Below, piece by piece: positions 37 to 58,636 of a DNA stretch of 64,000 nucleotides. The notes beneath the pieces are model-generated. The model was not told the DNA's origin. It made no database searches and was given only the letters and a program-made list of their open reading frames with translations. This stretch comes from Nemertoderma westbladi (taxonomy: Eukaryota > Animalia > Xenacoelomorpha), in contig JAUCBJ010008095.1 of assembly GCA_032718475.1 (NCBI GenBank), positions 19,421 through 83,420 on the forward strand, written 5' to 3'. Position 1 is the first letter of the stretch, and every line of letters starts with the position of its first letter. The position numbers were made by a program, and so were the translations under genes.

Positions 37-1586
37 GATTTATATTGCAGTTGAATGCCTACCACCATAACGACAGTTAAAGTAAGTCTAGTAATTCAGT
101 ATCAACTGTAAGCCTAGTAATTAATTACCGATACCGTTACTCAGTGTAACGTGATATATATAATATATTAAAATACCGGTATACACTTATAGTATATATA
201 AGTATTATTACAGACTAGGTTTAGTCACAGAATACCGGTATATAATTTCAGCCTAAATTTATATAAATATATATAATAAGCCTGCCTTAAATACCGGTAA
301 TGTCAATAATTTTATAATAACTGAATTTCTGAATTTTAGGGTGACTTCCCTTTACTTGTTACTGTTATTAAGCAGTAGTCCAACTGATATTAAGACCTAA
401 TTGATGTATAACAGGCCTACTATTTTATAAATCGGTTTGAGTTGATTTATAAGATATATATACCCGTACAATGGGTTTTGACAATGTTTGAAATAAATGT
501 TATTATTTCTGAGTAAGGAGTCACTACACAGAAGCTGAATACTCTCAGTGGAGTGCTACTTGTTGGACACTAATACGAATTATTCTACTTTACTAAGTTA
601 CTTATCACTACAAATTACTTACAATTACTGTGGGAGATTACAATCTCTAAACAAACAATAACAAGTTACACGTACAAATTTTAGGGTAATTTCACAAGAA
701 ATCTACAAACCAGAATAACAAGGAGTTAGAATTTCTGATTATTACAAACGGACAGGATACTACGGTATTTGAAAATAATAAAGCAGTAGTAAGTAAATTG
801 CGTTGTCCAGATAAGAAAATACCACCGTCTGACGACTTATAGCCGTAGCGCTATAAGTACTACGTTATGTACCCGGAGTGTCCTTACCTAGAAGTTAATT
901 ACCGCAGCCAACCAGAGCTAATGTGCCTATTAACCACTTTACAACACAAATATACTGCCTACACACAAAATTACTTTTGGAAAGCACTGTACTCTAAACC
1001 CTAAATTAGGTACAAGTACTTATACAACAAATAACCAGCAGTTAAATATACTTGTACAGCCAAAAGAACCACGGTATCTGATGGAGTGACCGGAGCACAA
1101 AATCACCAGTCTTTACCTAAGCCTAGCAGCCCTGATGTAGTACCGGGGTTAATTTAACTACAACGCTATGTATAACAAGCACAATTACTGTAGGAATGAA
1201 CTTGGGGAGTTTGTAGGTTGCAAATACTCGCATAAACTCTGAATAATAAATATTACGCTACCCGTGCAGATTATACAAACAAAATACAGACCAAATGCTG
1301 GCAGACTACTGTCAAGCCTAAATAAACTACAGTATATGCAGACTCCGAAATGGTTAGTTAGTAGGCGTTCTAACCGAGTAGTACGATTCGAGTAGTACGT
1401 ACGAGTAGGACGCAGTCCCTGATTAAATATCAATACCTACCGGTATACAATTATCAAAAATCGAATAATACTGTTGTACCTGTAAGTACCGGTTCGGGTA
1501 GTTAGGCAGTTAAGCCTACAGCTTACCGTTCGACCGGCACCTTCGACTTTATTGCCTACTGTGCAATAAAGAACAAAATCTATTAT

Positions 1587-4500
1587 TGTTTGAGCTTTCA
1601 GACCTTTAGCAGTTTAACCTGCCAAATTTAGGTGTCCTCTTGTTTATAAATCGACTTTAGCCTATAACAATTATTTTTAGTGCACATGAAGTTACATTAG
1701 CCGAAGCCAGTCTATGCGCGATCATTCACCCACTGTTAAGGGAGACTGGATTCGGGTGCTTTGAAAGTTATTGCGTTGCAGACCTACTGTATTATTCGAT
1801 TGATCATTACTATATAATCTCTGACAATATATTTACTTTTGGGGAAATATTAACAGTTCCTTTAGGACGTGGCGCTTTAAGTATATAAAACAGAGTTATG
1901 ACTTATACTAAACACAACGAGATGGCCACTGAGTTTCGTAAATAGGCATTCTTTAGGAGATGCTTTATTATCTGTCACACTACTTCACACGACTTCACAC
2001 TGATCTGCCGACCATCACTGAATTTGATCATATATAAGGAGGATAGCAACTGACACATGTAGGGATTATGAAATAGCATTTAATTCACATAAAAACCACT
2101 ATAATGTAAGTCGCAATTGCTACAGGTAACCGGTCCCTCTTACCTTCAGTAATCAAGAAGATTGGGGGTTTTATGATTATTTATCGTTATTCTCCAAATA
2201 TAACAACATATCCATCCATATACAACAATTAATAACAGACAGTAAACAAAAGTAAAATAATGCGGTGAACAGTCAGTATGTGTTGCTTATGCAGTGTTGT
2301 GCAGTACTTCAGTGCTCCAGGTTTGATAATAGATTTACGTTCTTGTAATCAAAGCCATCTAACCTAGTAAAACAAACTACCTAGTAAAACAAACAAATTG
2401 CGGCACTCTACCAGTACTACCTAGTAAAACAAACAAAGTGCGGCACTCTACCGGTACTACCTAGTGAAACTCAAAGTTCGGCACTCTACCAGTACTACCT
2501 AGTAAAACAAACAAAGTGCGGGACTCTACCGGTACTACCTAGTGAAACTCAAAGTTCGGCACTCTACTGGTACTACCTAGTAAAACAAACAAAGTGCGGC
2601 ACTCTACCAGTACTACCTAGTGAAACTCAAAGTCCGGCACTCTACCAGTACTACCTAGTAAAACAAACAAAGTGCGGCACTCCACCGCTACTACCTAGTA
2701 AAACAAACAAATTGCGGCACTCTACCAGTACTACCTAGTAAAACTCAAAGTCCGGCACTCTACCAGTACTACCTAGTAAAACTCAAAGGTCGGCACTCTA
2801 CCAGTACTACCTAGTAAAACTCAAAGTCCGGCACTCTACCGGTACTACCTAGTAAAACAAACAAAGTGCGGCACTCTACCAGTACTACCTAGTGAAACTC
2901 AAAGTCCGGCACTCTACCAGTACTACCTAGTAAAACAAACAAAGTGCGGCACTCTACCGGTACTACCTAGTGAAACTCAAAGTTCGGCACTCTACCAGTA
3001 CTACCTAGTAAAACAAACAAAGTGCGGCACTCTACCAGTACTACCTAGTGAAACTCAAAGTCCGGCACTCTACCAGTACTACCTAGTAAAACAAACAAAG
3101 TGCGGCACTCTACCGGTACTACCTAGTAAAACAAACAAAGTGCGGCACTCTACCAGTACTACCTAGTAAAACAAACAAAGTTCGGCACTCTACCGGTACT
3201 ACCTAGTAAAACAAACAAAGTGCGGCACTCTACCGGTACTACCTAGTGAAACTCAAAGTTCGGCACTCTACCAGTACTACCTAGTAAAACAAACAAAGTG
3301 CGGCACTCTACCGGTACTACCTAGTGAAACTCAAAGTTCGGCACTCTACTGGTACTACCTAGTAAAACAAACAAAGTGCGGAACTCTACCGGTACTACCT
3401 AGTGAAACTCAAAGTCCGGCACTCTACCAGTACTACCTAGTAAAACAAACAAAGTGCGGCACTCTACCGGTACTACCTAGTGAAACTCAAAGTTCGGCAC
3501 TCTATCAGTACTACCTAGTAAAACAAACAAAGTGCGGCACTCTACCGGTACTACCTAGTAAAACTCAAAGTTCGGCACTCTACCGGTACTACCTAGTAAA
3601 ACAAACAAAGTGCGGCACTCTACCGGTACTACCTAGTGAAACTCAAAGTTCGGCACTCTACCGGTAATACCTAGTAAAACAAACAAAGTGCGGCACTCTA
3701 CCAGTACTACCTAGTAAAACAAACAAAGTGCAGCACTCTACCGGTACTACCTAGTGAAACTCAAAGTTCGGCAATCTACTGGTACTACCTAGTAAAACAA
3801 ACAAAGTGCGGAACTCTACCGGTACTACCTAGTGAAACTCAAAGTCCGGCACTCTACCAGTACTACCTAGTAAAACAAACAAAGTGCGGCACTCTACCGG
3901 TACTACCTAGTGAAACTCAAAGTTCGGCACTCTATCAGTACTACCTAGTAAAACAAACAAAGTGCGGCACTCTACCGGTACTACCTAGTAAAACTCAAAG
4001 TTCGGCACTCTACCGGTACTACCTAGTAAAACAAACAAAGTGCGGCACTCTACCGGTACTACCTAGTGAAACTCAAAGTTCGGCACTCTACCGGTAATAC
4101 CTAGTAAAACAAACAAAGTGCGGCACTCTACCAGTACTACCTAGTAAAACAAACAAAGTGCGGCACTCTACCGGTACTACCTAGTGAAACTCAAAGTTCG
4201 GCACTCTACTGGTACTACCTAGTAAAACAAACAAAGTGCGGCACTCTACCGGTACTACCTAGTGAAACTCAAAGTTCGGCACTCTACCGGTAATACCTAG
4301 TAAAACAAACAAAGTGCGGCACTCTACCGGTACTACCTAGTGAAACAAACAAAGTTCGGCACTCTACCAGTACTACCTAGTAATACAAACAAAGTCCTAT
4401 ATCCGCAATATCCTACTGTAAAGTTTGTGAATCAAGGCATAATCCAACCTTCTCACCAAAACAGTAAACTCTAAGTAAGCAAATCTATTGCAGTATTGGT

Positions 4501-6880: not shown

Positions 6881-7653
6881 TTGCCTTACATTTTATTGCC
6901 TTTCAGAACGGGCCCTGCCGCGTCCTCGAAAACTACGTATAGGCGATTTATTTAGCTTGTGATACGGGACTTATGGGGCGAGTCACTAGTTTACCTTGGA
7001 CATTGGGAGATGGTGCGACCATTTCTTCACAAGCTCGTATTTTCGTAAACCCAAATCCTCGTCCGACTCCTCGTGACCGATTGGTTGTATCCACCGTTGG
7101 CAAAACATCTGGGAACGCGCGGGAAGCGGACGACGCAGACCCAAGAGAAACTTGCGCCCCCTTTTGATCAGCTGGTATGTGTCCCAGTCCTCCTTGCGGT
7201 TCTCTGGGAAGTGACACCGTATCCCGAGTAACTCGAATAGTCGGTTCAAATCCCTTTCGTTCTTCAATATTTATAGTTTTCTTTAGTTGTTGGCTCCTTT
7301 TGAACCCTTATGATCCTGTTCTGTCCGTCCTCCCGAGGGTGACGTGCAGACGGCGCAACCGGAGTAGCTGGTATGTTGGTCGCCTCTAGGATCTCCTCTT
7401 CCTCGAATACGCTTGCTCGTATGCGTTTGTGGTAGAATGCGGCTCAGTACGCCCATGCGACGGTTAACCAAGCTCCCTTGTTTCGCTTTTCTGTTCGGAA
7501 ACGATCAAATTCACCATATGTGATACGATTGACGACTTTCTGGAAGTTCCATGTATTCTTATTATCGGAATGAATCTGTAGCAAATATTCGCGCACAACT
7601 CTAAATCCACTATCATGAGGTAAAATATCAACTACCTCGATTAGTTCGTCATA

Positions 7654-10092: not shown

Positions 10093-10128
10093 AAATGCAG
10101 CTGCAATGCAGCATGCCGATCCTAGTAG
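7660..10128 (+). mobile_element. RTE-clade non-LTR retrotransposon, 5'-truncated, with short 3' UTR and TAG tail; 100-bp target site duplication (7560-7659 = 10129-10228)
   Basis: APE C-terminal motifs (SQIDHIL, SDHRL), RT motifs (QNGFR, DFFKAFDSV, GVLQGDTLAP, FADD), no C-terminal CCHC, and identical flanking direct repeats. Confidence 0.93.
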
Positions 10129-13100: not shown

Positions 13101-13817
13101 AATCTTTCAAATGGAGCTGCCGCTTCCTCTTGAATATCGTATCCTCATCTCGGCTCTCCAGATATCCCCTTTGCCATTATTAGAAGTATGGTTACATAAT
13201 CATTACTACTAGAGGGAATACAACAGAGTTTATGTTAGTTGTGAGGAGCTTTGAGAGTTTTCGTCTGCCCTTTTGGCTCGACAATGCTCTAACCTCCTAC
13301 CCATAGCCTAAGATCTAGGGTTTCTTTAATGACACACTGTTTCTTATCTAAAATTTTGCCGAAATAAAAACGATTTGGGCTAAACTGGCTGTGAGTCTAA
13401 AATACTCACCTTTTGATCCCAAACTATTATCAGAAAATAAGCAATCAAGAATTAGTAATAAATATAGGGAAGACTTATTGAAACACGACCGTGTAAAATT
13501 TAATATTAAAAAAGAAAGGCTCGTGAGTCTTCCGTTCTCTTGTTTCTCTAATTTTAAGTTCCACCCGACTGTACCCTGAAATCCATTCACTGGAGAAAAT
13601 TTTAAAATTTTTCAAATCCAAATGGATTGTCTAAAATTTCGAAAATGTCTCATATTGTGAGTTCCAAGTAGAATTCCATTTCTTATACCTACAAATCCCG
13701 CTCCTATGTGACACATAAGGGTACTACCCTCAATGTTCACATATAAAGACAATGGAAATCTACCGCAGTCTTTACTACAGTGTACAGGTACGCGGAAATC
13801 TATTTGTAAACTCCTTA

Positions 13818-16800: not shown

Positions 16801-16908
16801 AGCTTTGACAAGCAAGACCTCTTTGTCAGAGAATCTCCTTGAGCGTCCAGTCTTACTTTCACTCGAAAGTTGTCTGTGTTTGGGTCCCAAAATAGTCCCA
16901 ACACCTTG
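13818..16908 (-). pseudogene. pol 3' part of element C (RT connection, RNase H, low-complexity spacer, integrase) with a frameshift near 15010 and stops near 14932 and 14596
   Basis: ORFs 15009-16908, 14595-14861 and 13818-14564 are colinear with B pol. Confidence 0.9.
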
Positions 16909-18104
16909 TGTAAAAGCTTTTGTGGGATAACTGGTTCGTTTGCCTTGCTGGCCAGTTCCCCCCGGTCGCTAGAATACTCTAAAAGGGATCTATAGCTAAA
17001 ATAGTGCAAGCTACCAGCTTATTGGCTGATTTGCTGTACGAAGGTATCTGGGCTCCGTTTAATCGGCCAACCAGCCTAGGAAAGTTGCGTCATAGCCCTG
17101 TTTCTGTATCTGCCAATAGAATTTGAGTTGGCGTTGATTTTGACCTATCCCAGAGCTACTGAACTGAATTTCCTATCTGTATGCTCATCCTCTGTGTTGG
17201 ACGGGAGCTTCGTGGAATAAGGGTAGTTGGTATCCTCGTATAGGGTAGTAGTCATATGATTCTGTTGTTGTGTTCCCATTTTTTCGCCATAACACCGGCT
17301 TTTGGAACAACTCTAGCAAAAACTGCTTAGATTATAGAAAAGTATAACTGTTACCGGCGGTGTTACCTCACTTGATTTAACGGCACGGCACGGACTTTAA
17401 TTACTAATCATATTGTTTGTACTGCTATTTACCGTCAGTTATTAATTGTATCGATTTGTTGATGAAATATTGTCATTTGGAGAATATTGATAAATCACCC
17501 AAATTTCCCAATTTTCTTGATACACTACAGGTTAGAGAGACAGGCTATATATAACAATTGCGATTTATATCAATGTGGTGTGTATTGAATCTAATGTTAT
17601 TTAGTAGACACTACCTGAGTCAATTGCTGTTCTCTTTATGTGTGATCAAATATACTGACGGTCGGCAGAATAGTGTGCATGATTGTGAGTGTGACTGGTA
17701 ACAAAGCATTTCCTAAAGAATGCGCCTTATACTTTAATCATAAGCCTTATCGTTGCGTTTAGTATAAGTCCTAGCTCTGTTTAAATAGATAGAGCGCCAC
17801 ATCCTAAAGGAACTGTTAATATTTCCCGAAAGTTAATAATATCTGTCAGGAATTACATATTAGCGATCAATCGAATAATACAGTAGGCTTACACTGCAAC
17901 CTTACACTGCAATAATAAAATCTAAGCATCCGAATTCAGCCTCCCGGGTGTATCCATCGGGTGAATGATCGCGCATGGGCTGGCTTCGGCTAATGTTTGT
18001 TTATTAGCATAAAATATTGTCGTATGCTAAAGGTGTGTTAATTAACTAAAAGACATATAAATTTTGGCAGGTTAAACTGCTAAAGGTCTTCAAAAGCGCG
18101 AACA
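16909..18104 (+). repeat. 5' LTR of element B (1196 bp)
   Basis: About 99% identical to 36977-38174 (I counted ~7 substitutions and 2 single-base indels by eye). Confidence 0.95.
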
Positions 18105-18116
18105 GTAACAGTTATA
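18105..18116 (+). promoter_or_regulatory. Non-tRNA primer binding site of B (GTAACAGTTATA), complementary to LTR 17343-17354
   Basis: Exact 12-nt reverse complement, directly abutting the LTR end, with no TGG start. An equivalent covarying pair exists in A (1576-1586 / 2326-2336). Confidence 0.75.
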
Positions 18117-18443
18117 AGTCTTATTGCAGTAAGCAATAAGGTTGCAAAATACCGTAGTGACCGGTAAACCTGAACCGGTACTTCTGTAGGTCAGTAGGCC
18201 TAACTGTCATCACCGGTACCGGTACTGCTGTACAAGTACATTTAGTATTATTCGATTTTGATTATTGTATACCGGTAGGCTGTTTAAGAGATTAGGGACT
18301 GTACACCCCTTGTTTCTTTTGGAGCTTACTTATTTCTGTCAGTTTTATTTATTTGTAGGCCAGTATTGAGCAGAAGGCGTGTAAGCTTGTTCAGTCTATA
18401 CAGACAATTGGTAGGTCAGACTGTTGTCGGATTGTTGTTGAGT

Positions 18444-18975: not shown

Positions 18976-20276
18976 ATTCAGAGTTTATGCGATTATTCGC
19001 AACATTCATGTCCCCAAGTTTATTCCTACAGTAATTGTGCTTGTTACACATACCGTTATAGTTAAATTAACCCCGGTACTACACGGGCTGCTTGGCGTAG
19101 GTAAAGACTGGTGACTTTGTGCTTCGGTCACTCCAGCAGATGCCGTGGTTCTTTTAACTGTTCAAGTATATTTAACTGCTAGTTATCTGTTTTAAATAAG
19201 TACTTGTACCTAATTTAGGGTTTAGTGTACAGTGCTTTCCGAAAGTAATTAGTGTGTAGGCAGTATATTTGTGTTGTAAAGTGGTTAATAGGCACGCTGG
19301 ATCTGGTAGTCCGCGGTAATTAACTTCTAGGTAGGAACACTCCGTGATACATAACGTAGTACCTATAGCGATACGGCTATAGGTCGTCAGGCGGTGGTAT
19401 TTTCCTATCTGGACAACGCAGTATATTTACTACTACTTATTATTTTAAATACCGTAGTACCCTGTCAGTTGTAATAACCAGAATTCTAACCCTTTGTTAG
19501 GCTGGTTTGTAGACTTCCTGTAAAATTACCCTAAAAATTTCGTACGTAATATTTTGTTGTGTTTAATTAGAGAATTAATCTCACCCGTATCGTAAGTAAT
19601 TAGTAGGAATAAGTAACTTAGGTAAATTAGAATTATCTGTTTTAGTGTCTCAATAAGTAGCACTTCACTGAGAGCGCACAGCTTCTGTGTAGTGACTCCC
19701 CCAGAAATAATAACATTTATTTCAAATATTGACAAAACCCCTTTTAAACGGGTATATATCTATTATAAATCAACTCAAACGATTTATAAATAGTAGGCCT
19801 GTCATACAACAACTAGGTCTCAATATCAGTTGGACTACTGCTTAAATAACGGTAATAAAGTAAGTTAAAGTAACCAAGTAACCCTAAAAATATTCAGAAA
19901 TTCAATTATTTAAAATAATTGACATACCGGTATTTACCATAGGCTTATTATATTTATTTCTATAAATTTGAGCTGAAATCATACCGGTACTCTGTAATTA
20001 ATTCTAGTCCATAATTATACTTATATATACTATAAGTGTAAGCTGTATACTGGTATTCACGATAGGCCTATTATATATTTATATATATTTGTGCTAAAAT
20101 TATATACCGGTACTCTGTGACAAACCTAGTTTACAATACTTATATATACTATAAGTGTATACCGGTATTCTAATATACTGTAATCAATTAACGGTACTAG
20201 GCCAACGGTTATACTGAATTACTAGACTTGCTTTAACTGAAACTATAGCAGTAGACATTCAACTGTATAGCTAAAC

Positions 20277-23200
20277 ATGTCTGACACTCAGCAAAACCTG
20301 TCAGACAGTCTGATCGATACAACCATCTGTGACACAGATAGGAGTGTGGAGCGATTAAGAAAGGAGTTCAGCTCACCTCCTACTGCAAGAAAGGTCATCC
20401 CTCCAGTAGTATCAGACCCTAGGCTAATCCACCATAGGTCCATCATAGGCACTCGGGCACAGGTCAAACGGAACCAAGAGGCAGTTGTCCTATCGCAGCA
20501 ACATCTTGGTCAAGAACCTACTTCCCAGCGACCCGATAGCTCCAGTAGTTCGGATACTGTAGAGCTGACCCCCGAACGCGGAGTGCAGATGGCTGCTACA
20601 GTCTACTCGGACCCCCTTCTCACCCTTCCTGCTGCAGTGCTAACTACTATATTCATTGCGGTGGAGGAACATCAAGCCGACTGGGCGAGAAATAAGCGAG
20701 CGACCCAAGATAATTATGCGGGATACGCCAGGGAAGAATTGATGTCTATTGTCGAGTCACAATGGAACTTTCCCGAACTCGGACTCCCGTTGGATCTGTC
20801 CGAGGCTACTTGGGAAGATATACACAGGATGGGAGTGGCTAAAGATACAATGGATCCAGCTGTTTGGAAGAGGTCGGCAGCAGGATATGTGCAGGGATTC
20901 TTCGGCTCCTTGGAGCGATTGGAAGAACAACTGTTTCGACAACCCCAAGGACCTCAAGAGCAGGAAGAGCTGCTATACCAAGTACGCGAAAGAACCCTAC
21001 GTATTCGACTAATCCTATCAGCCTTTGAGGAAACTTCCAAAAGAAGACAGGACACGTCACTGCAGGTTGCTGTCAAAACTTGGTTCCATCGGGTAGGTCT
21101 CAAAGTACAGGAAACGGCCCAGTGGAAATCCCAGCTGGGTGAGAGATCAACCTATGAAGAACAAACTGATGCCACCCTTTCTCAAGCGGAAAGCGAAGAG
21201 ACCGCCGAGAAACCGCGAACTAGAGACGCTATCGACATTTATCTGTCCGACTATCAGCGATTCCTAGGAGACGAAGAGTTGAGGAGACGGCTGTCTGGAC
21301 TTTCCCCTAATAGTGAAGGAACCAAGCTTGTGTTGGACTCAATCGATGCCGAAATGTTAGCTGCAAACCAAGCTGAATTTGATGAAAAACTCCGCCTCAC
21401 TAGAGTCCGAGAAGAACAAGTAAAGAAAGAACGGATAGAGAAAAGAAAGGTGGCAGCAGCAGCGGCGGCAGAAGCAGAAGCCGAAAGAAAAGCGGCAGAA
21501 GCAGAAGCCGAAAGAAAGGCGGCAGAAGCAGAAGCCGAAAGAAAGGCGGCAGAAGCAGAAGCCGAAAGAAAGGCGGCAGAAGCAGAAGCCGAAAGAAAGG
21601 CGGCAGAAGCAGAAGCCGAAAGAAAGGCGGCAAAAGCAGAAGCCGAAAGAAAGGCGGCAGAAGCAGAAGCAGAAAGAAAAGCAGCAGTGGCAGAAGCAGA
21701 ACGGAGAGCTTCTGAGGAGACTATCCAACTGGAGTTGGAAAATCTGCAAGAGACGCAAGACAGTATAAATAAACAGTTTACTGCTAATCAAATGCAGATG
21801 ATGAGAAAATCTACTCCCAAGCGCCAGGGATACACATCCTCGGAGGAAGGCGAGACCACCGATCCTGAAGGCAGAGGAAATAGATCTCATCTAAGTAGGC
21901 GTAGAAAAACATCTTACCGTCGCAAATTGCCTGATTTGCCCCCAGCTGTTAGAAGACAGCTAGCTAGCACAGACTTGAGTAGTATAGAACCTACAGCCCA
22001 AAGTATTAAGGTCAAAAGACTCCCTACAATAGTTGATGAGCCTGAAATAATTAGGCCTGTCGTTCCCAAAGTCACTTCTGTGTTAGAGACCCCTGTACTT
22101 CCAGAGCTTAACTCTAAATTCCCTTTACATAGTACTACACTGCCTGTACCCGGTAGAACAGTCCAAGAGAATATCCCTGTCCGGATAGCAGAGAGAGAAA
22201 TCAAAGATTTGTCTCCCGTCGTCCCGCGTCAGCCCGCTACTATGTTGGCGACTCCCGCTTCGGCGGTCGAGTGGGTAGAAGAGGGACGGCGGGGGATGAA
22301 TCTCCTGCTAGGACAGATGCAGGAGACTGTCCACCAACTTAAGGGAACAGTGAGGGAAGGTAGAGCAGAGTTGCAAGAAGTGCAGCAAAGTATCGCACTA
22401 GAACGCGACAAATTAGTCAATATCCAAAAGGGCATACCAATACCCCCTGTAACATTGTGTCAACCTGTTAGGTCTGAAGTACTACATGCGCAAGGTGTGG
22501 AGCCTACACGCATCTATACTGCTAGTAAAGTAGAAACTCCTATAGCAAACCCTATTGAGGGTGATTATACGCCTGTTGCTAATGATATTCCCTATAGACC
22601 TGATAATAATCCGAGAAATTTATATACCGATAATTCGATATTAAATAATACGATGGCCCAAGAAAGCTTTACACGTCAGATGGCCAGAACAGAAGCCCGC
22701 CAGGCTGTTAAAGTGGGAGAAATCGTCAAATTCAATGGAGATGAGATGAAATGGTTACCGTTTAATGAATATTACGAAGATAGCATACAGAACTCTGTAC
22801 TATCTAGCGGAGAGAAATTGAGATTCCTCATCAAATGTTTGGAAGGACCTCCCAAGTTAATGGCGTTGAAGTTTATTGGACATCCAAATGGATTAAGACA
22901 AGTTTGGGATACATTAAACACCAGGTATGGTAATAAGGATAACATCGCTAAGTATTTGTATGCAAAACTAGTAGCCCCCCGCAAGTTCCTCAGTAACGAG
23001 ATTATAGAGTTTTCCGATGAGATTCAAGAGATCTGCCGACAATTGCATTGGTTAGGTAAGTCTCATGAATATCAGAGTTCTATGGTTATTGGAGCCATAG
23101 TCTCTACTTTGCCAAAGGGTGGAGTATGTACTCGCTGGGATAAGAAGGTATTGTATATGAATGAGCAGCAACGACGAAGCCCTACCATGGCTGATCTCAT

Positions 23201-26200
23201 GTCCTTCTTAGATGGTGAAGTAAAACTACAACTCATCAAGCAGTCCAGAGAGAAAACATCGGAAAATAAGGTGAGTGAGAAACCCATTTCTAGGAGAAGA
23301 GTAACACCTGTGTGTTATACTGATGACTGCGAAAGCCAAGCTTCTCAAGAGGAAGACAGCGGGAAAGACACCGAGAAATTTTACTATATTAACAAGACCT
23401 CAAAGGACGTAAGTAAACCTAAAGCTCGAACCCATGACAGAAGAGAACAGGTTAGTAAGACTCCTCCTCAGTCTCCTAGCAGAGTACACGGAAGAAAGCC
23501 CGAAGAAAGAACGAGAGTGCATAACGTTACCCAAGGTAAAGTGAGTAACATTAAACCAAACTGTGTGCTGTGCGACGGGCCCCACCGTTTGAGTGCGTGT
23601 GCTGAGTTCCTTAAGAAATCCCTAGTAGCCAGACGAGAGGTTGTGTGGGATAAGCGGTTATGCTATAATTGCCTCAGACCAGGACACCAACGGCGAACCT
23701 GTTACTCCGACATAAAGTGTGCAAAGTGCGGTACGCAACATCACGTCTTGTTACATAGCGAATTCGAACGAAACCACCTGAGTCAGGTAAGTGAGCCCGA
23801 ATTACATGTCCAGTTCAGTGATGTGAACGACACTGACCAAGGTTCTGAGTGGGAAGGATTCTATACAGACGAATTCTCCGATGCCAACGAATCCTGTTAT
23901 CTAATAAATACCACAGTGTATCGAGCACTTACGTATGAAAAGGACACTGACGAGTTTACTCCAACTCCTTTTGACAAACAACCATCTTGGAAAGTTCCAA
24001 CTTCCAACATAGGAATAAGAGAATTTCCTGTAGTGCAAGTGAGAGTTCATGGTCTCAACAAGAGTTACATAGTGAACGCCCTACTTGACTCCGGCAGCAC
24101 AGGAACATTCATCGATCAAGAACTAGCCGAAGATATCTTTGCTGGACAACCCAAGTTCCGGACTGAATTGAATATGTCAGGAATTATGCAGGTTTGGAAA
24201 TCTACCCTAACGGCAGATTACTATGTAGGTGTGTTGTCCACCCCCCAGGATAAGTTAGGAACACAAGGTATAAGGTCAGTAAAAATGGTGGCTATAAAGA
24301 ACTTTGCTACTACTCAAGCAGACCTTTATAATTGGGACGAGGATGAGAGCATCCAACATCTTAAGATACCTCGATTCCAGACAGATTATCCTGGAGTGCA
24401 AATACTCATCGGCCAAAACGCGCACGAGGCGCTCGAAACATTAGAGAAACGGCCTGCTCAACCACAGCCACTGCAAACCTATGCGGTAAGAACTAGAGTA
24501 GGTTGGTACTTTACTGGCCCTTCCCGTAGAACTCTCGAAGAGAGAATGCCACACGAACAAATATATCAAGTAAACGATTGGGAAGTGGAAAGCAGTGAGG
24601 TGGACGAACTAACTGAAGGAACACCATACTCCTCAGATAATGACGACATCTACCAACTCTTCGATGAAGAGAACACAATGGACCTACTTACCGAAAACCA
24701 AACTTGGAAAAATCAGGTGAATCTATGTCAACTGATTCGCCCATTGGAACCCATTGCTTACAATGACGAACTAAACGATGAGATAGAGCGCTACAACGCT
24801 AGAACTCGGGACGAACTAGCCGTACGATTCTTTACCCAAGAATTGGTAGAACCCAATTCATACGACAAAGCCCTGTCGATAGAAGAAGAAAGAGCCAAGC
24901 AAATCCAGGAAACAACCACACGTTTTTTAAAAGATCAAGGTAGATATGAAATCGGACTACCCTTCCGAAAACGGGAACCTAGATTTATAAATAACAGACC
25001 CTTGGCTGAGAAAAGAATCAATCAATTACATCGACGTCTTACGGCAAATGCTTCAGCTAAGGAAATGTACCAAACTCAGTTGAAGAAATTTATCACAAAG
25101 GGATATGCGGAGCGAGTACCGGAAGGAACTCCAATAACTGAAAGAACTTATTATCTAATACATCATTACGTTCCCAAACCCGGTAAACCCCATGAAGTAC
25201 GGGTCGTATTTGATGGCTCCGCCCTATATATGGGCCAATCCCTCAATTCCGAGTTGTTACCAGGACCCAACTTGCTCCAATCTTTGTTGGGAATACTTTT
25301 AAGATTAAGACAATATTCCATCGCGTTCGCCTCCGATATAGAAGGAATGTTCTTACAAGTCAAGGCGTTGGATCGTGATAGAGACAGCCTAAGATTCCTG
25401 TGGTGGCCTGAAGGAGATCTCAACCAGAAACCGGTAGAGTACTGGATGACCATCCAGGCTTTTGGGATTATATCAAGCCCTTCAAACGCCTGCTCAGTGG
25501 TTCGTACCACTGCGGATGACAACCGGGATGCCTTCTCCAAAGAGGTGATAGATAACATCAAACGAGACATATACATGGACGACAATTTAAAGTCCCTTCC
25601 ATCAGTAAAAGAAGCCATTGATGTCGCGAAAGGAACGGTTGAGTGTTTGAAAAGAGGTGGATTTCGATTGACGAAGTTCACCAGCAACTCCCATGAGTTT
25701 CTGGAAGCAATATCTGTAGAAGACCGGGGATCAAAAGACCTCGACTTAATACATGACGATCTTCCGGAAACCAAGACGCTTGGCTTGAAGTGGGACACAG
25801 AAAGAGATATCCTGTTTTTTCAGCTAAAACAGCGAGATAATCCAGTTCGGACCAAACGGATTTGTTTAAGTATTCTGAGCACTTATTTCGATCCCTTGGG
25901 ATTTATTAGCCCAGTTATATTGATTGCTCGGAGTTTAGTACAACAAATGTGGCTTGAAAACCACTCGTGGGACGATCCACTCAAGGGAGAACTATTAAAG
26001 AAATGGATGAAATGGGAGGACTCGCTACCTGCCATCAAGAACTTTATAATTTCCCGTTCATATTTTGGTCATGTTCTCCCTACGTATTCCTATCAACTCC
26101 ATGTATTTGGAGATGCCAGCGATATGGGAATCGGTATAGTAGCATACCTGCGAGTCGAAACTCCGGATGGAATCAAAGTTGCCTTGGTTACCTCTAAGGC

Positions 26201-28457
26201 ATTGATTAACAACAAGCTTAAGGTTCCTCGGGCGGAGTTAAAAGCAGCTTTATACGCTACAGCTATCGGCCGGAATGTAACAGAACAGATCGATTATCCA
26301 CTGGAGAAAACTGTTTATTGGACCGACGCTTTACTTGTGTTGGAATATATAACGAATGAAGTCTGTCAGTTCAGCGTCTTTGTTACTAACAGAGTGGCCA
26401 TTATTCTTAGTCGCACAACGATAGATTAATGGAGACACTGCCCTGGTACGATTAATCCAGCTGACATCGCCTCCAGAGGAGCCACTCCACAGGAACTGAT
26501 AGATACTCCAGACTGGTTGGGTGGACCCGACTTCCTGAGCAAGGAAGAAGATGAATGGCCTCCTCACCTTACTACGGCAGAGATCAGACAAGCCAAGGGA
26601 GCGGAAAAGGTCAAACCTAAAACCCGAGCGAGCAAGTCGAAGTTATTTAAACCGATGATCGATCTATCTGTATTACATGCTTCCGGAAATGATGCTTCAG
26701 ATCCACAATCCCTCGTCACGAACAAGTCTGTTGTGGAAATTAAGGATAGAGATTGGAAATCTGGAATACCAGACGTCTCGCAAGGAATCTCACCCCTGCT
26801 GCAGCAAGCAATACATCATTACAGTTCCTGGAATCGGCTCTGTAAGGCCGTCGCATATTTAAAGCGATGTTTTCATCATCGTTATTCCAGGACGAAGACC
26901 ACTAATGATACTGCTCCATTAACATCGGTCCAAGTTCATGCTATTAAAGATTTACCTAAATATAAAATACCCGATCGGTTTCTAAAAGAAAAGATCAGTT
27001 ACCAGGAGCATGAAGAAGCCAATAAACAGATACTGCGACTCCTGCAATGCTACGAGGATTCCGATAAGTATTTCCTGTTGTTAAGAAATCCACAGATGCG
27101 CTTAAGGGATCGCTTCTCTAGCACAATGATAGATGGGTTAATACGTGTTGGAGGAAGGCTAACTAATGCGCCATTATCTTTTGACACTAAATTCCCCATA
27201 CTCATTAGGAATTTTGAAGTACAAGTCAAGATGATTGTAGATGTTCACAGTAAACTTTATCATGCTGGTAGAGAACGAGTTCTTAGCGAAATTCGAACTC
27301 GCTATTATTTCTATAAACCACGTAGAGCTCTGAACCAAGTTCTTAGGAACTGCATACCCTGTAGGAAAGCATTCAGTAGGCCTTTAACACAGCGAGAGGC
27401 AGAATTACCTAGGGAACGAGTAAGCTTTTATGAACCACCCTTCACTAATACTGGTGTAGATTTATTTGGCCCTATTGAAGTATATCGCGCTAGGACTATA
27501 GTCAAGAGATGGTGTGTCATCTTCGTATGTATGACTTGCAGAGCCATCCATCTTGATATGGTGAACGATCTATCTACTAACAGCTTCGTCTTAAGTTTAC
27601 GACGACAGATCGCTCGCTTCGGAACTAGTAATACCATGCGATCGGACAAGGGAACGAACTTCATTGGTGCCAACAACGAAATTCAGGCTTACGTAAAGGA
27701 CTGGAATCAAAGACAGGTGGACGACCAGCTACGGATAACAGCGTCTAGCTGGACCTTTAACGCCGCCGACGCCCCTTGGTGGGGAGGAAGTTGGGAGAGA
27801 TTAATTCGAAGTGTCAAAACCGCATTTCACTTTATAGTGCCGTGCCGCGCATATCTCACTGACGAACTTCTGCGGACGTTAATGGAGGAAATCGCTGCCT
27901 ATCTTAACGAGAGACCGCTTATGCCAGTCTCATCGAGTCCCGACTCCCTGGAAGCGCTAACACCCGCTCACTTCCTACTTAAGAAACCTGTAGCCATGCT
28001 CCCACAATCCGAGATTGCCGACGGAGATGAATACTGCCGTCGAACTTGGCAGCTTATGCAGTTGCTATCCCGTCGTTTCGCTGACCATTTTGAGAAACAT
28101 TATCTGCCCACGCTACAACTTCGAACTAAGTGGTTTGCGCAGCAGGAAAATGTCAGCGCCGGAGACATGGTGCTTATTGTAGATCCGGACCTTCCACGCA
28201 GACGGTGGCAGACAGGTCGTATCATTGAGACGCACATCTCGGAGGATGGTTTAGTGCGCTCAGTAGAACTCGTCATCATGCGGCGTAACTTCAAGAAACC
28301 TGGCATAATCTTTGAGACGCAACAACTCAATCGCCCAGTTGGTCGTTTATGTTTGCTGGAAAGAGACCGGGAACTCTCTGGAAACTATGGAAGGCAAGAA
28401 ACTCTTCCCACGACCACCTCCCTAATCCCTCAAACATCTAGGGGCTCCTCAACGTAG
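20277..28457 (+). CDS. BEL/Pao Gag-Pol polyprotein (2726 codons) with one in-frame TAA at 26427-26429
   Basis: Gag (FNGD...W..F, CVLC..H..C, CYNC..H..C, CAKC..HH..LH), protease LLDSGS, RT YMDD, RNase H HVFGDAS, integrase HHCC and GVDLFGP/SDKGTNF/WER. The frame continues ID*WRHCPG. Confidence 0.93.
21462..21710 (+). repeat. 27-bp coding tandem repeat, ~9 x AEAERKAAE
   Basis: Read directly. Confidence 0.95.
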
Positions 28458-29161
28458 TACGTCTGGAGTGGGTGTATGTCTATATTATTTTATTTATTTT
28501 ATTACATTTTATATGTAAATATTATTATGTACGTTATTATAATCGTTTTATTTAATTTTATTTAGTAGAATGTTATTTAGATTATTTAGTAGATTAGTGC
28601 AATATATTAGTGTGTATTACGTAATTACATAATATATCTAGTGTGACGGCGAGAAATAATTATTTTCTCTTTCCTTACTGTCCGTATTATATTATAAATG
28701 CGAGACTATAGTAAGATGACATGTCAGTACTTATTAAAGTACAATAAAGCCACTACTATATTTAAGTATTATTGGTAGGCAGAGTATTAGGAATGCAAAG
28801 TTCAGATCCTCGTGTCTCGGCTAAACCAAGCTCTGGGTAGACCTTGGAAACGACTTGCCTCTTCACACTGACATTGCTTCGTGCGATATTGCTCTTCTAC
28901 CTTATAACAAATAATACATATAGTAGCGTGATATCCCTCTAACAGTAGCGTAAATCGCAAATAAATCTGTTAAACTTTTTGACCATCTGTAATTCTAGTC
29001 GATTAAGATATCGTGGCACCCACCGATATACTTGAAAGACAAATTCTAGAATCAGTGGTTAACGTCCCCAGACAAGTTCTGGAATAAATCGGTGCCCATC
29101 TTAAATATTAATTTAATATTTATTAAAATCTGTAAAATTCCGATCCTTTAAAATTTCTAGT

Positions 29162-32100
29162 TGATGTGATTTCATATATTCAATATTTACATGTACTTAT
29201 ATCTTATATCTAGTTAGGTCGTCCCTGATATTGTAACTGTCAATCATATACAATACCGGTACTCCAGTATTGTACTTGTGTCGTACTTCAGTACTTGTCA
29301 TATCTGCATGTCAATACATTCTGCTTGTGTCTTTCTTATCATACTACAGTGTTGTATAATCCAGCCTAATATATAGAACCTGCATACCTAAACTGCATTT
29401 CATATATCATAACATGGCGCTAGTGTGTATTTCTGGATTACTGTAGTCAGTTAACCAGCAAACATTCAATTTTGTAATTGCTGAATTAACACTACAAATG
29501 CTGAAATGGCTGAATATAACACGCCACCAAGCCAGCGTATTCAGTTGACACTCGACTCTGCAGATATAAACGGGTTAGTTACTGGCCAATCCCCTCCGTT
29601 TTTCGGCTTTAGTGAAGCCACTACACCTTCGCACGATGCCATTGGATTTGGCCCATTGGTTGACCTCAATGGTCCCCCCACGACACCGGTACCTGTACCT
29701 AGACCGGATTATAAACCGGCCCCCATCAACATTGCTGGATTAGTGCAAGGTTTCGCTGACGTTTTGGCTACGCAGCAAAACCAACTCGAGGATCAACGTC
29801 GGAAGGATGAAACATTCCGCCGAACCGAGGAATTACGATTACGCAGGGAAGATTTTGCGTATTTCGAACAGGCTAGGCAGCGGGACAACGAACGACTGCA
29901 AGAGTTCCTGTCAACCGCACTGCGTCAACCGCGGGGTGACGCTCCAAGCGATCCAGATCCTGGTATACATCGACGAAACCTCACTCATCAACCATCCCGA
30001 TCATCCAACAACAACTTGGCCCGTTCTTCACTGGCCAAAGTCCCACCCCCCCTTTCTAACGAAGCCTCGATGGCGGATTTTGCACGGTGGCGCCGTTTAT
30101 GGGATGGATTCGTCGTTATACAACGACTAGATCAAGTTGAACGCGAAGAACAAAAGGCCGCCCTCAACCAGGCACTGAGCCCAGAGCTTCAGGACCTGTT
30201 ACATCACGGTTTAAATATTTCGAGTTCAGGTGACGATGTTGATGTAGATGACATTCTATCTGCAATTGAATCTTACCTTCGCCAAAAACGCAATATCGCA
30301 TTGGACCGAATTGCCTTTGATGAGCGCAAACAGACTGCTGGAGAATCCTTCGACAGCTTTTATGTTGACCTACAGCGTTTGGGGAAAGATGCTGATTTAT
30401 GCTCTCATTGCTTCGATGATCGATTGGTCGATCGCATCATAACAGGTGGCGGCGACCCTGAAATCCGTCGGCGGTTATTGGCTAAACGCCCCCGCCCCTC
30501 ACTACAGGATACTGTAGATTTCTGTCGCGCTGAGGAAGCAGCTCAACGCAATGAATCGAGCCTTTCCACATCAAAGATTCTTAATATTTCCGCCAAATCA
30601 TCACATAAGGGTCAACAGCGAAGTTTCTCCCAATACCGGCCCCAACATAGATCCAAATCAAGGGATAAAGTCAAAGACAGGACGCCGGTACCTCAGTCCC
30701 AACCATGCCCATATTGCGGAAAACAGAAGCACAAACAAGGTCAGTATTGCCCAGCTAGCAATTCAACATGTAGATTTTGTAAAGTAAAGGGCCACTGGGA
30801 CACAGTGTGTTTCAAGAAAAAAGGAACACATAAATCGAAAATGAATTCAAATCACAGTATTTCTAATGTCGAATCCGATGAAAAGTTACAAACTGGCACT
30901 ATAAAACTCTCTATTAGTTCTGTGGACCTTACAAATAATAAAAATACCCCAATGGTATTTGTCCACCTCCAGACAAGCAATCGTATGACCTCTGTCGGAT
31001 TCTATGCCACTCCAGACACTGGTGCTGCAGTGACACTGTTTCCCCAAACCAATCTGAAGGATTTGTCTTTATCTGAATCTGAGTTACAGTCTACATCTGT
31101 AAAATTATCTAATGCAGATGGTGGGGATATCGACTGTATTGGAACATTTTTATGTAAAATAACCCTTGGTAACCGCCACTCAACAGTGCGGGCTTATGTT
31201 TGTAATTCAGCCAAACATATTCTCCTGGACTGGACTGTTTGTCAAGAACTAGGAATTATCTCAGCAGACTTTCCCTCTCAGGAGTCAACCTTGTATGTCT
31301 CTCATATCCCAGAACTTAATTCATTGAAAGGTTTACCTAACACTCCCACAGATTCCGAGACTAATGCAATCAAAGAATCCATTATGAAAGAATATTCCGA
31401 TGTTTTTTCCACTGAGGGAGCCTTGAAACCAATGAATGGGGAGCCTATGCAGATTCATCTCAAAGATGATGCACAACCTTTCGCCATTTCGACTGCCCGA
31501 CCTGTTAGTCTGGCCATCAGAGATCGAGTCAAAGCAGAGATTAATCGCATGGTCGAACAAGGTATCATTGCTCCAATTGGAGATGTTGTCACACAGTGGT
31601 GTCACCCACTTGTTGCTGTTATACACCAAAGTGGTAAACTAAGAATATGTACTGACTTCACTAAGTTAAATAAATACTGCATCCGACCTTATCATCCAAT
31701 GGTCACACCAAAGGCTGCCATAGATGGTATCTCTTCTGGAGATAAATATTTTTCCACGGTTGATGCAGTTAAAGGTTATTGGCAGATAGAGTTAGCTGAA
31801 GAATGCCAGCATCTCACTACCTTCATATGCTCAGAAGGCAGATTCAAATATCTACGAGCCCCCATGGGACTCTCATCCACGGGTGATGAATATAACCACC
31901 GTGGTGACTTGGCGTTTTCTGGATTGTCCAATTATGAAAAAGTAGTGGATGACATCCTCATCCACACAACAGACTTCCATGAACATGTCAACTCAGTCCT
32001 TCAAGTTCTGCAGCGTTGTCGGCAGAATGGAATTACCTTAAATCCGACCAAATTTCAATTTGCCAGGTCTGAAGTTAAGTTTGTAGGCTACAAAGTTGGT

Positions 32101-34528
32101 CGTGACGGAATTAAAGCCGATCCAAGTAAACTCTCTGCTATTCGTGAATTTCCTGAACCACATGGTATCCGCGATCTCAGATCCTTCTTCGGTATCGTAA
32201 ATCAATTGGGGATGTTTTCACGAGACATAAGTGCTGCAGCTGAACCCCTTCGCCCTCTTTTAAAGAAGTCTAACCAATTTTCATGGAATTCCAATCATGC
32301 AGAAGCATTTACAAAGGTCAAGGAGGCCCTGTGCACTCCAGCTGTGCTCCAGCCATTTGACCCCAACCTTCCAACTGTCCTGCAAACTGACGCCTCCCGA
32401 ACCAAGGGACTTGGGTTTGCTCTCTTACAGAGACACTGTAATGGATTGCATCTCGTTCAGTGTGGATCTAGATTCATTTCAGATACGGAATCGCGATATG
32501 CGATGGTTGAATTGGAAATGTTGGCCATCGTGTATGCCGTACAGAAATGTCGGTTATACCTACTGGGAATAAACTTCAATTTACTCACAGATCACAAACC
32601 ATTGATACCAATATTGAACGATAAATCATTATCATCAATTGACAACCCACGATTGCTTAGAATGAAGGAGAAACTTATACCTTACACATTTGTTACCGAA
32701 TGGCAGAGTGGAGCTAACCATCATATTCCTGATGCATTATCTCGCGCCCCTGTTCAAGGGCCCAGTGAGGAAGACAAATTAGCTGAAGATGAACTACAAC
32801 ATCTTATCTGTGCTCATATATTCGCAATAGGGCAACAGATTGATGAGGATGAAGACCCACCAGGAATGACCTCACTCACGGATCCAATATTAACTAAACT
32901 CCGCAATTCAGCTGCCAGTGATTCAGACTATTGCGAGCTGGTACAATCTATAGAACGCGGTTTCCCTGAAAAGAAAGATGCACCAGCATACCTCCTTCCT
33001 TATTACAGCTTAACTGACAATCTATCAACAGATAACGGTCTAGCCCTCTTTGATTCCCGAATTATTATTCCAAAATGTCAAAGAAAGGAAGTATTAAGAC
33101 GCCTGCATGCATCTCATCAGGGTACTGAGCGTACCAAACGGCGTGCTCGGCTTACAGTATATTGGCCCGGTCTGTCCGCAGACATCATTAATGTAGTTGG
33201 CATGTGTCAACCATGCCAAGAACGGCGGGCATCCTTACCAGCCGAGCCGCTTCTTAGGGACCCACCCCCTTCTCGACCTTTTGAACAAACCGCTGCCGAT
33301 ATAGGTCACCATGGTGGGAAAGCATATCTCATATATGTAGACCGTTATTCAGGTTGGCCAGAGGTAGCAGAATTTTTGCATGAACCGGACTCCGCTAAAG
33401 TTGTTAATGTTTTAAAGCGTTTTTTTACTGCCACAGGCATTCCTGTTAAATTTAGGTCAGATGGAGGACCCCAATTTACATCATCAACATTCAAAGCCTT
33501 TGCCAGCAATTGGGAATTTGACCATGTGCAATCCATGCCTCATTTCCCATCCAGCAATGGTCTGGCCGAATCAGCTGTAAAATCCATGAAACACCTGATT
33601 GCCACCACAGGTGGTGACATTCATAGTGATAACTTCCGTCTTGGATTACTAGAATTTCGCAATACTCCGCGTACTTCCGGATACTCACCAGCACAATTAA
33701 TTTTCGGCCGCCCTTTACGTTCCATTGTGCCTTGTCATATATCAGCCTTTGCCTCTAAATGGCTTGATGACACTCATGAATCACAGTCCGAATCTACAAA
33801 CACCGCTACAAAGAACGAATTACGCCGACCTTTGACACCCTTAACCATTGGCCAAAGTGTATGGTTTCAAAATCATTCTACAAAACGATGGTCACAACAT
33901 GGTACAGTAATAGAAAGACAAGGAAGAAACTACCTTGTGAAACTGTTGTCTGGTAGATCACTGTGGCGCAACCGCCGTCATATACGCGCCCGTATCGATC
34001 CTACCAATCAAGATTCTGGAGGGAAGGTGCCCAATGATGATTCTCGTACACTGAATCCTCCGTCCACCCCGCGAGTTAAATTTCATGACAACCTCACCGA
34101 GCATGAATATGACAGTAACTCGCCACCTACTCGCCAAAGTTCCCGATTAAGGAAAGCTCCAAACTATTTCGGATTTAATTAACAGCTTTACGATTCTAAA
34201 CCGAAAGTAAATAACTGGAACAATGAACTGAAGGTAATTAACTGAAAAGAATCATTTCATCTCGATAGGGGAGTTGATGTGATTTCATATATTCAATATT
34301 TACATGTACTTATATCTTATATCTAGTTAGGTCGTCCCTGATATTGTAACTGTCAATCATATACAATACCGGTACTCCAGTATTGTACTTGTGTCGTACT
34401 TCAGTACTTGTCATATCTGCATGTCAATACATTCTGCTTGTGTCTTTCTTATCATACTACAGTGTTGTATAATCCAGCCTAATATATAGAACCTGCATAC
34501 CTAAACTGCATTTTCATATATCATAACA
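29162..34528 (+). mobile_element. Intact Ty3/Gypsy (Mag-like) LTR retrotransposon nested in B; LTRs 29162-29414 and 34275-34528; TSD CTAGT
   Basis: The LTRs differ by one T. PBS TGGCGC at 29415, PPT AGGGGAG before the 3' LTR, and CTAGT at 29157-29161 and 34529-34533. Confidence 0.97.
29506..34182 (+). CDS. Gypsy Gag-Pol polyprotein, 1558 aa, uninterrupted
   Basis: Two zinc knuckles, protease DTGA, RT (DAVKGYWQ, PMGL, VVDD), RNase H (TDAS, ELE, TDHKPL), integrase (HHCC, D-D-E, SNGLAE). Confidence 0.96.
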   Translation: MAEYNTPPSQRIQLTLDSADINGLVTGQSPPFFGFSEATTPSHDAIGFGPLVDLNGPPTTPVPVPRPDYKPAPINIAGLVQGFADVLATQQNQLEDQRRKDETFRRTEELRLRREDFAYFEQARQRDNERLQEFLSTALRQPRGDAPSDPDPGIHRRNLTHQPSRSSNNNLARSSLAKVPPPLSNEASMADFARWRRLWDGFVVIQRLDQVEREEQKAALNQALSPELQDLLHHGLNISSSGDDVDVDDILSAIESYLRQKRNIALDRIAFDERKQTAGESFDSFYVDLQRLGKDADLCSHCFDDRLVDRIITGGGDPEIRRRLLAKRPRPSLQDTVDFCRAEEAAQRNESSLSTSKILNISAKSSHKGQQRSFSQYRPQHRSKSRDKVKDRTPVPQSQPCPYCGKQKHKQGQYCPASNSTCRFCKVKGHWDTVCFKKKGTHKSKMNSNHSISNVESDEKLQTGTIKLSISSVDLTNNKNTPMVFVHLQTSNRMTSVGFYATPDTGAAVTLFPQTNLKDLSLSESELQSTSVKLSNADGGDIDCIGTFLCKITLGNRHSTVRAYVCNSAKHILLDWTVCQELGIISADFPSQESTLYVSHIPELNSLKGLPNTPTDSETNAIKESIMKEYSDVFSTEGALKPMNGEPMQIHLKDDAQPFAISTARPVSLAIRDRVKAEINRMVEQGIIAPIGDVVTQWCHPLVAVIHQSGKLRICTDFTKLNKYCIRPYHPMVTPKAAIDGISSGDKYFSTVDAVKGYWQIELAEECQHLTTFICSEGRFKYLRAPMGLSSTGDEYNHRGDLAFSGLSNYEKVVDDILIHTTDFHEHVNSVLQVLQRCRQNGITLNPTKFQFARSEVKFVGYKVGRDGIKADPSKLSAIREFPEPHGIRDLRSFFGIVNQLGMFSRDISAAAEPLRPLLKKSNQFSWNSNHAEAFTKVKEALCTPAVLQPFDPNLPTVLQTDASRTKGLGFALLQRHCNGLHLVQCGSRFISDTESRYAMVELEMLAIVYAVQKCRLYLLGINFNLLTDHKPLIPILNDKSLSSIDNPRLLRMKEKLIPYTFVTEWQSGANHHIPDALSRAPVQGPSEEDKLAEDELQHLICAHIFAIGQQIDEDEDPPGMTSLTDPILTKLRNSAASDSDYCELVQSIERGFPEKKDAPAYLLPYYSLTDNLSTDNGLALFDSRIIIPKCQRKEVLRRLHASHQGTERTKRRARLTVYWPGLSADIINVVGMCQPCQERRASLPAEPLLRDPPPSRPFEQTAADIGHHGGKAYLIYVDRYSGWPEVAEFLHEPDSAKVVNVLKRFFTATGIPVKFRSDGGPQFTSSTFKAFASNWEFDHVQSMPHFPSSNGLAESAVKSMKHLIATTGGDIHSDNFRLGLLEFRNTPRTSGYSPAQLIFGRPLRSIVPCHISAFASKWLDDTHESQSESTNTATKNELRRPLTPLTIGQSVWFQNHSTKRWSQHGTVIERQGRNYLVKLLSGRSLWRNRRHIRARIDPTNQDSGGKVPNDDSRTLNPPSTPRVKFHDNLTEHEYDSNSPPTRQSSRLRKAPNYFGFN

Positions 34529-36898: not shown

Positions 36899-36976
36899 CT
36901 GTTTAGAGTATTTACGTATATTAGAAACTGTGATTTTGTATATTTTATAGACTTAAATCCCATTTTCTGGGAGCGG

Positions 36977-38174
36977 TGTAAAAGCTTTTGTGGGATAACT
37001 GGTTCGTTTGCCTTGCTGGCCAGTTCCCCCCGGTCGCTAGAATACTCTAAAAAGGGATCTATAGCTAAAATAGTGCAAGCTACCAGCTTATTGGCTGATT
37101 TGCTGTACGAAGGTATCTGGGCTCCGTTTAATCGGCCAACCAGCCTAGGAAAGTTGCGTCATAGCCCTGTTTCTGTATCTGCCAATAGAATTTGAGTTGG
37201 CGTTGATTTTGACCTATCCCAGAGCTACTGAACTGAATTTCCTATCTGTATGCTCATCCTCTGTGTTGGACGGGAGCTTCGTGGAATAAGGGTAGTTGGT
37301 ATCCTCGTATAGAGTAGTAGTCATATGATTCTGTTGTTGTGTTCCCATTTTTTCGCCATAACACCGGCTTTTGGAACAACTCTAGCAAAAACTGCTTAGA
37401 TTATAGAAAAGTATAACTGTTACCGGCGGTGTTACCTCACTTAATTTAACGGCACGGCACGGACTTTAATTACTAATCATATTGTTTGTACTGTTATTTA
37501 CCGTCAGTTATTAATTGTATCGATTTGTTGATGAAATATTGTCATTTGGAGAATATTGATAAATCACCCAAATTTCCCAATTTTCTTGATACACTACAGG
37601 TTAGAGAGACAGGCTATATATAACAATTGCGATTTATATCAATGTGGTGTGTATTGAATCTAATGTTATTTAGTAGACACTACCTGAGTCAATTGCTGTT
37701 CTCTTTATGTGTGATCAAATATACTGACGGTCGGCAGAATAGTGTGCATGATTGTGAGTGTGACTGGTAACAAAGCATTTCCTAAAGAATGCGCCTTATA
37801 CTTTAATCATAAGCCTTATCGTTGCGTTTAGTATAAGTCCTAGCTCTGTTTAAATAGATAGAGCACCTCGTCCTAAAGGAACTGTTAATATTTCCCGAAA
37901 GTTAATAATATCTGTCAGAAATTACATATTAGCGATCAATCGAATAATACAGTAGGCTTACACTGCAACCTTACACTGCAATAATAAAATCTAAGCATCC
38001 GAATTCAGCCTCCCGGGTGTATCCATCGGGTGAATGATCGCGCATGGGCTGGCTTCGGCTAATGTTTTGTTTATTAGCATAAAATATTGTCGTATGCTAA
38101 AGGTGTGTTAATTAACTAAAAGACATATAAATTTTGGCAGGTTAAACTGCTAAAGGTCTTCAAAAGCGCGAACA
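36977..38174 (+). repeat. 3' LTR of element B (1198 bp)
   Basis: Direct repeat of 16909-18104, preceded by the PPT. Confidence 0.95.
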
Positions 38175-58471: not shown

Positions 58472-58636
58472 ACCGGTACTAATTTAATAAATATTGGTTA
58501 TACTAAAATGAATACACAAAAAGTAACAAATTTAGCCTAATGAAGAAACTGCAACCCAGTATAGAGTATACCAGTATCAGTATACGGACCAATAAATACG
58601 AAATAGGCCTATACCAAAAACTGCTGCTGATTGCGT

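Follow-up and report, generated by a model that had tools for sequence, protein, structure and literature searches.

Two related BEL/Pao retrotransposon copies, A and B, probably prime their minus-strand DNA with an 11-nt RNA taken from their own long terminal repeat (LTR) and not with a host tRNA, judging by analogy with the retrotransposon Tf1. Both copies lie in the window, the whole stretch of 64,000 nucleotides of Nemertoderma westbladi DNA that was analysed. The sequences exhibit the geometry of a self-primer, with the primer binding site (PBS) placed right after the LTR, base pairs that covary between A and B, and a spread of the arrangement among relatives. In A and B the primer sequence is contiguous, the unsplit form. 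The initial annotation, which had proposed self-priming for B, missed the larger point that most testable relatives appear to possess the primer sequence only after removal of a predicted intron within the LTR.

Element B was identified as BEL/Pao by the order of its Pfam domains (DUF1759, Peptidase_A17, Integrase_H2C2 and DUF5641), which are shared by its best matches, and it also has the LTRs and the polypurine tract that belong to the traits of this group. Its parts in the window are as follows.

16909..18104, forward strand: 5' LTR of element B, 1196 nt, TG...CA, matching 36977-38174 at 99.25%
20271..26429, forward strand: gag-protease-RT-RNase H frame of element B, with DUF1759 and Peptidase_A17 (Pfam)
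26430..28457, forward strand: remaining pol (integrase) of element B in the same frame, with Integrase_H2C2 and DUF5641
29161..34528, forward strand: nested Ty3/Gypsy element C, flanked by a CTAG target duplication, its PBS at 29415 being of the TGG type
36969..36976, forward strand: polypurine-tract-like sequence ending before the 3' LTR of element B
36977..38174, forward strand: 3' LTR of element B, with the same primer sequence at 37412-37423

The translation of frame 20271..26429 contains CCHC knuckles together with DSGS and YMDD motifs, and the frame is terminated by an in-frame stop at 26427-26429. Alignment of the two LTRs revealed 9 differences, none of them within the primer site, and the length of B without the nested element C is ~15.9 kb. 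The copy in the window is rearranged and damaged, with the in-frame stop, the nested element and no target duplication; a target-site duplication of B was not found and its 5' and 3' flanks differ. A second, distant BEL/Pao element, D (10034-16908, reverse strand, 42% protein identity to B), is truncated at the 5' LTR of B, does not continue beyond the 3' LTR of B and has no 5' LTR in the window. The missing target duplication of B and the interruption of D suggest that a deletion took place between two insertions, or that these recombined.

Several further features were noted in and around these elements. A long region 3' of the integrase is common to B and D and includes a homologous Cys/His zinc-knuckle-like frame (35837-36160, forward strand, in B and 10415-10627, reverse strand, in D; 27% identity, E 2e-6), the other frames there giving no Pfam match; B has in addition a frame of 205 aa whose end is basic (36281-36898), and a 27-nt tandem repeat within its gag frame (21410-21760) encodes an Ala/Glu-rich repeat. 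An insertion in the tail of D (7560-10233) contains an RT frame (7645-10092, RVT_1) flanked on either side by a direct repeat of 105 nt and is possibly Penelope-like; a piece related to it is found at 59957-60889. Two host genes, SMU1 and one for an MFS transporter, at 56930-58483 and 61760-63424 (both on the reverse strand), each read through as a single long open frame in which no intron is evident, and the SMU1 protein is at most 78% identical to animal proteins among the matches listed.

The evidence for self-priming begins with the sequence GTAACAGTTATA (18105-18116), the first 12 nt past the 5' LTR of B, which is the exact reverse complement of 17343-17354 inside the LTR.

17344..17354, forward strand: predicted self-primer of B, 11 nt, exact reverse complement of 18105-18115
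18105..18115, forward strand: PBS of B, adjoining the LTR, without TGG

The pairing is bounded by mismatches on both sides (17342/18117 and 17355/18104), and C17354, the 3' base of the segment, pairs with G18105, the first base past the LTR (offset 0). The absence of a TGG-type PBS and this placement of the 3' base were thereby borne out; of the 12-nt self-match described in the initial annotation, which is exact in B, the part shared with copy A is 11 nt (17344-17354 with 18105-18115), position 17343 being a twelfth pair that is absent from A. One contig of sequencing run X1 tracks B up to 18115 and diverges from 18116 onward, and two others (X4 record 18 and X5 record 26) cross the primer site, inside which no letter change occurs among the differences listed (40 of 248, in 4 of 7 runs).

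By composition a match such as that of B is expected ~2e-4 times per LTR. When 20,922 window positions per strand were searched, 0.37% reached a match of at least 12 nt, real inverted repeats being part of this background, and a control on the 3' flank of B produced a match of 13 nt. This match begins with the last 3 bases of the LTR and runs on into the AT-rich flank (38175-38290); it is the reverse complement of LTR positions 17834-17846 and was taken as chance. Because of this background and the 13-nt control match, B alone is only suggestive, and a coincidence in AT-rich sequence had to be considered.

Copy A lies on the reverse strand at the start of the window and is 72–85% identical to B. 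The start of its LTR was not found.

1576..1586, reverse strand: PBS of copy A, directly after the LTR end (1587), differing from the PBS of B at 4 of 11 positions
2326..2336, reverse strand: predicted self-primer of copy A, 11 nt, exact reverse complement of the A PBS, aligning to the site in B
2276..4400, reverse strand: tandem array of 38/40-nt units just upstream of the A primer site

The array spans ~2.1 kb and B has unrelated U3 sequence in its place. From the primer site to the LTR end the distance is 750 nt in A and 761 nt in B, and at the homologous site 4 of the 11 pairs are altered on both sides. The cross-pairs between A and B fail, with -3.8 and +0.1 kcal/mol compared to -11.7 and -8.0 kcal/mol for the copies' own pairs. 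Both primers start at an A preceded by a T; at the 3' end the primer reads A-C in B and A-T (A-U in RNA) in A, while the PBS starts with GTAAC in B and with ATAAT in A. A match at this fixed homologous site is expected by chance at 2e-6 (composition), and on the sequence comparison copy A removes the doubt about chance that B alone had left. Given this second, different match and the pattern across relatives described below, coincidence has practically no probability left, and we count it as refuted.

The self-primer of Tf1 is 11 nt long and is released by an RNase H cut. If B follows this model, transcription would start at A17344 or a little upstream, the 5' stretch of the RNA would fold onto the PBS across ~750 nt with the help of two flanking hairpins, RNase H would cut past position 11, after the A-C end in B or the A-U end in A, and the RT would extend from the cut self-primer. 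During plus-strand synthesis the primer, still attached, would serve as template for the next PBS, which would explain a gap-free Watson-Crick match of ~11 nt. The transcription start of B, predicted earlier at 17341-17343, is probably better set at A17344, as suggested by the 11-nt duplex and the T-A start in both copies. The AGT proposed as an initiator-like site in front of the primer turned out not to be conserved, since A reads CGT there. A TATA-like stretch at 17332-17348 overlaps the primer site of B, is absent in A, and could place the start of B downstream of the primer site.

The following signals were predicted in the LTR and around the PBS.

17531..17536, forward strand: donor-like site from a motif scan, conserved in A; splicing here might reduce the length of the 750-nt loop
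17914..17919, forward strand: AATAAA, the only one in the B LTR downstream of the primer; A lacks it at this place
18062..18085, forward strand: predicted U5 hairpin just upstream of the B PBS (-10.3 and -11.0 kcal/mol), near-identical in A (1626-1605, reverse strand)
18119..18141, forward strand: predicted hairpin just downstream of the B PBS (-9.2 and -8.8 kcal/mol), kept in A (1571-1547, reverse strand) with a different loop

In folding predictions the probability of the primer-PBS duplex ranged from 0 to 0.99 in both B and A, depending on the ends chosen, and the minimum-energy fold of B does not contain the duplex. The flanking helices of the Tf1 "pretzel" were not seen in the predicted folds of A and B, in which conserved local hairpins flank the PBS instead. 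When an intron was removed in silico to shorten the loop, the duplex probability was 0.0–0.92 in B and 0.07–0.86 in A. A split primer in B was also considered and was rejected, there being no donor upstream of the primer site in the LTR.

Relatives were retrieved with B aligned to 25 homologues out of 120 listed: 79 metagenome loci and 19 loci in genome bins, 98 in all, presumably contigs of host animals. The 19 bin loci (L080-L098) encode BEL/Pao polyproteins in prokaryote genome bins and are probably host-animal contamination; one of them, L094, is part of a record for a Wolbachia chromosome and has both LTRs as well as a PBS of the TGG type, and three of the other loci (L024, L026 and L027) hold head-to-tail copies sharing a single LTR, either tandem elements or an assembled circle. 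The nearest relatives of B are 42–44% identical to it and none among the loci is closer. In quick trees B sits on a long branch whose position is uncertain, and given this and the 42–44% identity, the relatives bear on B by analogy only. A DNA pattern scan with the conserved LTR end gave no match in viral or metagenome contigs, nor did a protein scan of viral contigs.

Among the relatives with both LTR ends readable, L094 is the only one with a TGG-type PBS. In the others, a stretch matching the PBS directly follows a pyrimidine tract and AG, and the remainder precedes an upstream GT donor. Of 16 relatives with both ends, 11 match the predicted splice joint over 11–15 nt, compared to 2 of 332 in a swap control and 0 of 18 in a 3'-flank joint control. 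A second set of 14 loci, for which the LTR end was not fixed beforehand, gave 11 matches of at least 11 nt and one of 10 nt, each reached in at most 1 of 100 shuffles; the failures were L079 and L090, the latter matching after the fact, once a 1022-nt intron was allowed. Extended to all 98 loci, many of them without LTRs, a search anchored at the CA LTR end and scoring Watson-Crick runs only found 29 with a match of at least 11 nt across the predicted exon-exon joint of a GT-AG intron inside the LTR (null 23/585, run on the 39 loci with any match), and 18 of the 29 matches are of exactly 11 nt. An earlier unanchored search over 3-kb regions had returned best matches by chance (L031, L052, L053 and L059) and was replaced by the anchored one. 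An unsplit match of 11–12 nt as in A and B, with the PBS start required to be GT or AT, was found in 8 of the 98 loci compared to 6 of 490 shuffles, the one in L048 looking like chance.

The matches in L055, L096, L090 and L079 appeared only under changed filters, L085 reached 10/11, and no self-match was found in L069. In the two elements of tRNA type that served as controls, C of the window and L094, the self-match is 5 nt only. Clustering of the 35 joint-type loci that have an RT row gave 28 groups at a protein identity of 95% and 24 at 70%, the median pairwise identity being 51%, and proteins from fish, sea urchin, coral and brachiopod nest among these loci; through this nesting, fish elements may share the trait. 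Between L083 and L084 three exon-1 bases differ and the PBSs differ to match, a covariation across the joint. In 28 representatives the last base of the primer is C or T in all and the next-to-last is A in 25, the ending that A and B have too; for this count L005, L016, L069, L088, L094, L095, L096 and the chance row of L044 were dropped and L044, L045 and L085 were added by hand. A TATA or initiator motif at fixed distance was not found in the 28 relatives (TATA-like in 4 of 28). The duplex extends to 13–15 nt in some cases, so that the primer does not have to coincide with the very 5' end.

Priming by a host tRNA half or small RNA, with the LTR match as a by-product, has a parallel in the half-tRNA priming of Copia lineages mentioned in the available text of PMC6317226. 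It is however very improbable here, as it would require, within one genome, separate host RNAs for A and for B and the copying of each into one and the same position of the LTR, and as the PBSs of 28 related families differ and each is matched by the family's own LTR. Covariation as such shows pairing, not priming, and the pairing could also be a real RNA helix with another task, such as packaging of spliced RNA only, translation control or dimer formation, the priming being done by something else. We regard this as decidedly unlikely, given that in all families the helix ends where a primer must end, 0–6 nt past the LTR, that no other PBS is present, and that the matches are gap-free with a peak at 11 nt, even though the searches scored Watson-Crick runs only. 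From the covariation of A and B, their failed cross-pairing and the dozens of self-matching BEL families without TGG, we infer, as the initial annotation did, self-priming of the Tf1 kind.

A variant of self-priming in which LTR RNA of the element itself would act as primer in trans, derived from a short LTR transcript (a solo LTR, the 3' LTR or early polyadenylation) and not from fold-back, is compatible with the unreliable folding of the 750-nt loop in A and B, with the great abundance of the family in sequencing runs of organism A and with a polyadenylation signal located 8–55 nt past the acceptor in many relatives. The predicted leaders of relatives speak against it, as the duplex in cis reaches probabilities of 0.6–1.0 after splicing in four of five relatives and at most 0.21 before splicing in all, and Tf1, the known case, is described as acting in cis in the accessible part of PMC10085805; we consider priming in trans unlikely.

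In most testable relatives a predicted GT-AG intron splits the primer, so that the spliceosome would have to assemble it. Taken together, the data suggest that probably a large BEL/Pao branch and not a single family primes with its own 11-nt RNA, that in most of its families the host spliceosome would join two LTR exons into the primer, and that the family in the window and at least 6 other loci would represent an intron-free form with a ready-made primer. As the spliceosome would build the primer, splicing would license replication, and the LTR intron would persist, since the spliced 5' end would be consumed as primer while the unspliced 3' copy would serve as template for the new LTR. If this is true, self-priming occurs in all three LTR-retrotransposon superfamilies, a whole BEL/Pao branch is independent of host tRNA, and the spliced form constitutes a new link of pre-mRNA splicing to the start of reverse transcription. 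It would also explain the failure of PBS finders on these elements and provide an annotation rule.

A literature search revealed no paper on BEL/Pao self-priming or on a spliced primer, though one may exist among older descriptions of elements or in Repbase notes. In the accessible portions of three BEL/Pao surveys (PMC554778, PMC3118150 and PMC6238403) terms for tRNA or priming were not found, and those of PMC5445492, PMC3601003, PMC6934838 and PMC12451622 contain nothing on BEL priming. For plants, the available text of PMC6317226 predicts self-priming in Tcn1 (Gypsy) and in TAR, Houba and Osr-1 (Copia), using as criterion a complementarity of 10 bp or more between the LTR and a stretch that starts 0–5 bp past it; B has 12 nt and A 11 nt of such complementarity, both at offset 0. 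These plant elements belong to other superfamilies, and a split primer is not mentioned in that text. The fungal GalEa Copia elements resemble A and B in having no tRNA PBS and a conserved hairpin adjoining the LTR, but the LTR-complementary stretch present in A and B was not found there, according to the accessible part of PMC5445492.

The closest parallel in mechanism is offered by Tf1 and the sushi elements, which in the portions available of PMC4600332 and PMC10085805 are described as having no tRNA PBS and a PBS past the 5' LTR that complements an LTR-internal stretch. The PBS of Tf1 begins with ATAAC (PMC11042837, available part) and its primer duplex is flanked by helices in the three-duplex "pretzel" (PMC10085805, available part). 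Tf1, Tf2 and Tj1 are thus like A and B in the tRNA-less and LTR-complementary PBS and its similar start. They differ in that the loop of A and B is ~750 nt and accompanied by local hairpins rather than a pretzel, and in that the primer of most relatives of B is predicted to be split by an intron. Tf1/sushi elements are Ty3/Gypsy chromoviruses whereas B has BEL/Pao domains and no chromodomain match (Pfam), and it is likely that B works like Tf1 without being a member of this group.

According to ICTV, replication of the Belpaoviridae is poorly understood, and the genus Semotivirus is characterised by tRNA priming from an 18-nt PBS for tRNA-Arg or tRNA-Gly and by a length of 4.2–10 kb (PMC8742986). 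Element B has the domain set and order, the TG...CA LTRs and the polypurine tract of this family, but no PBS for tRNA-Arg or tRNA-Gly, and its ~15.9 kb exceed the given range. By the protein features predicted from its sequence B is filed in Belpaoviridae, as an exception to the tRNA-PBS trait of the ICTV description.
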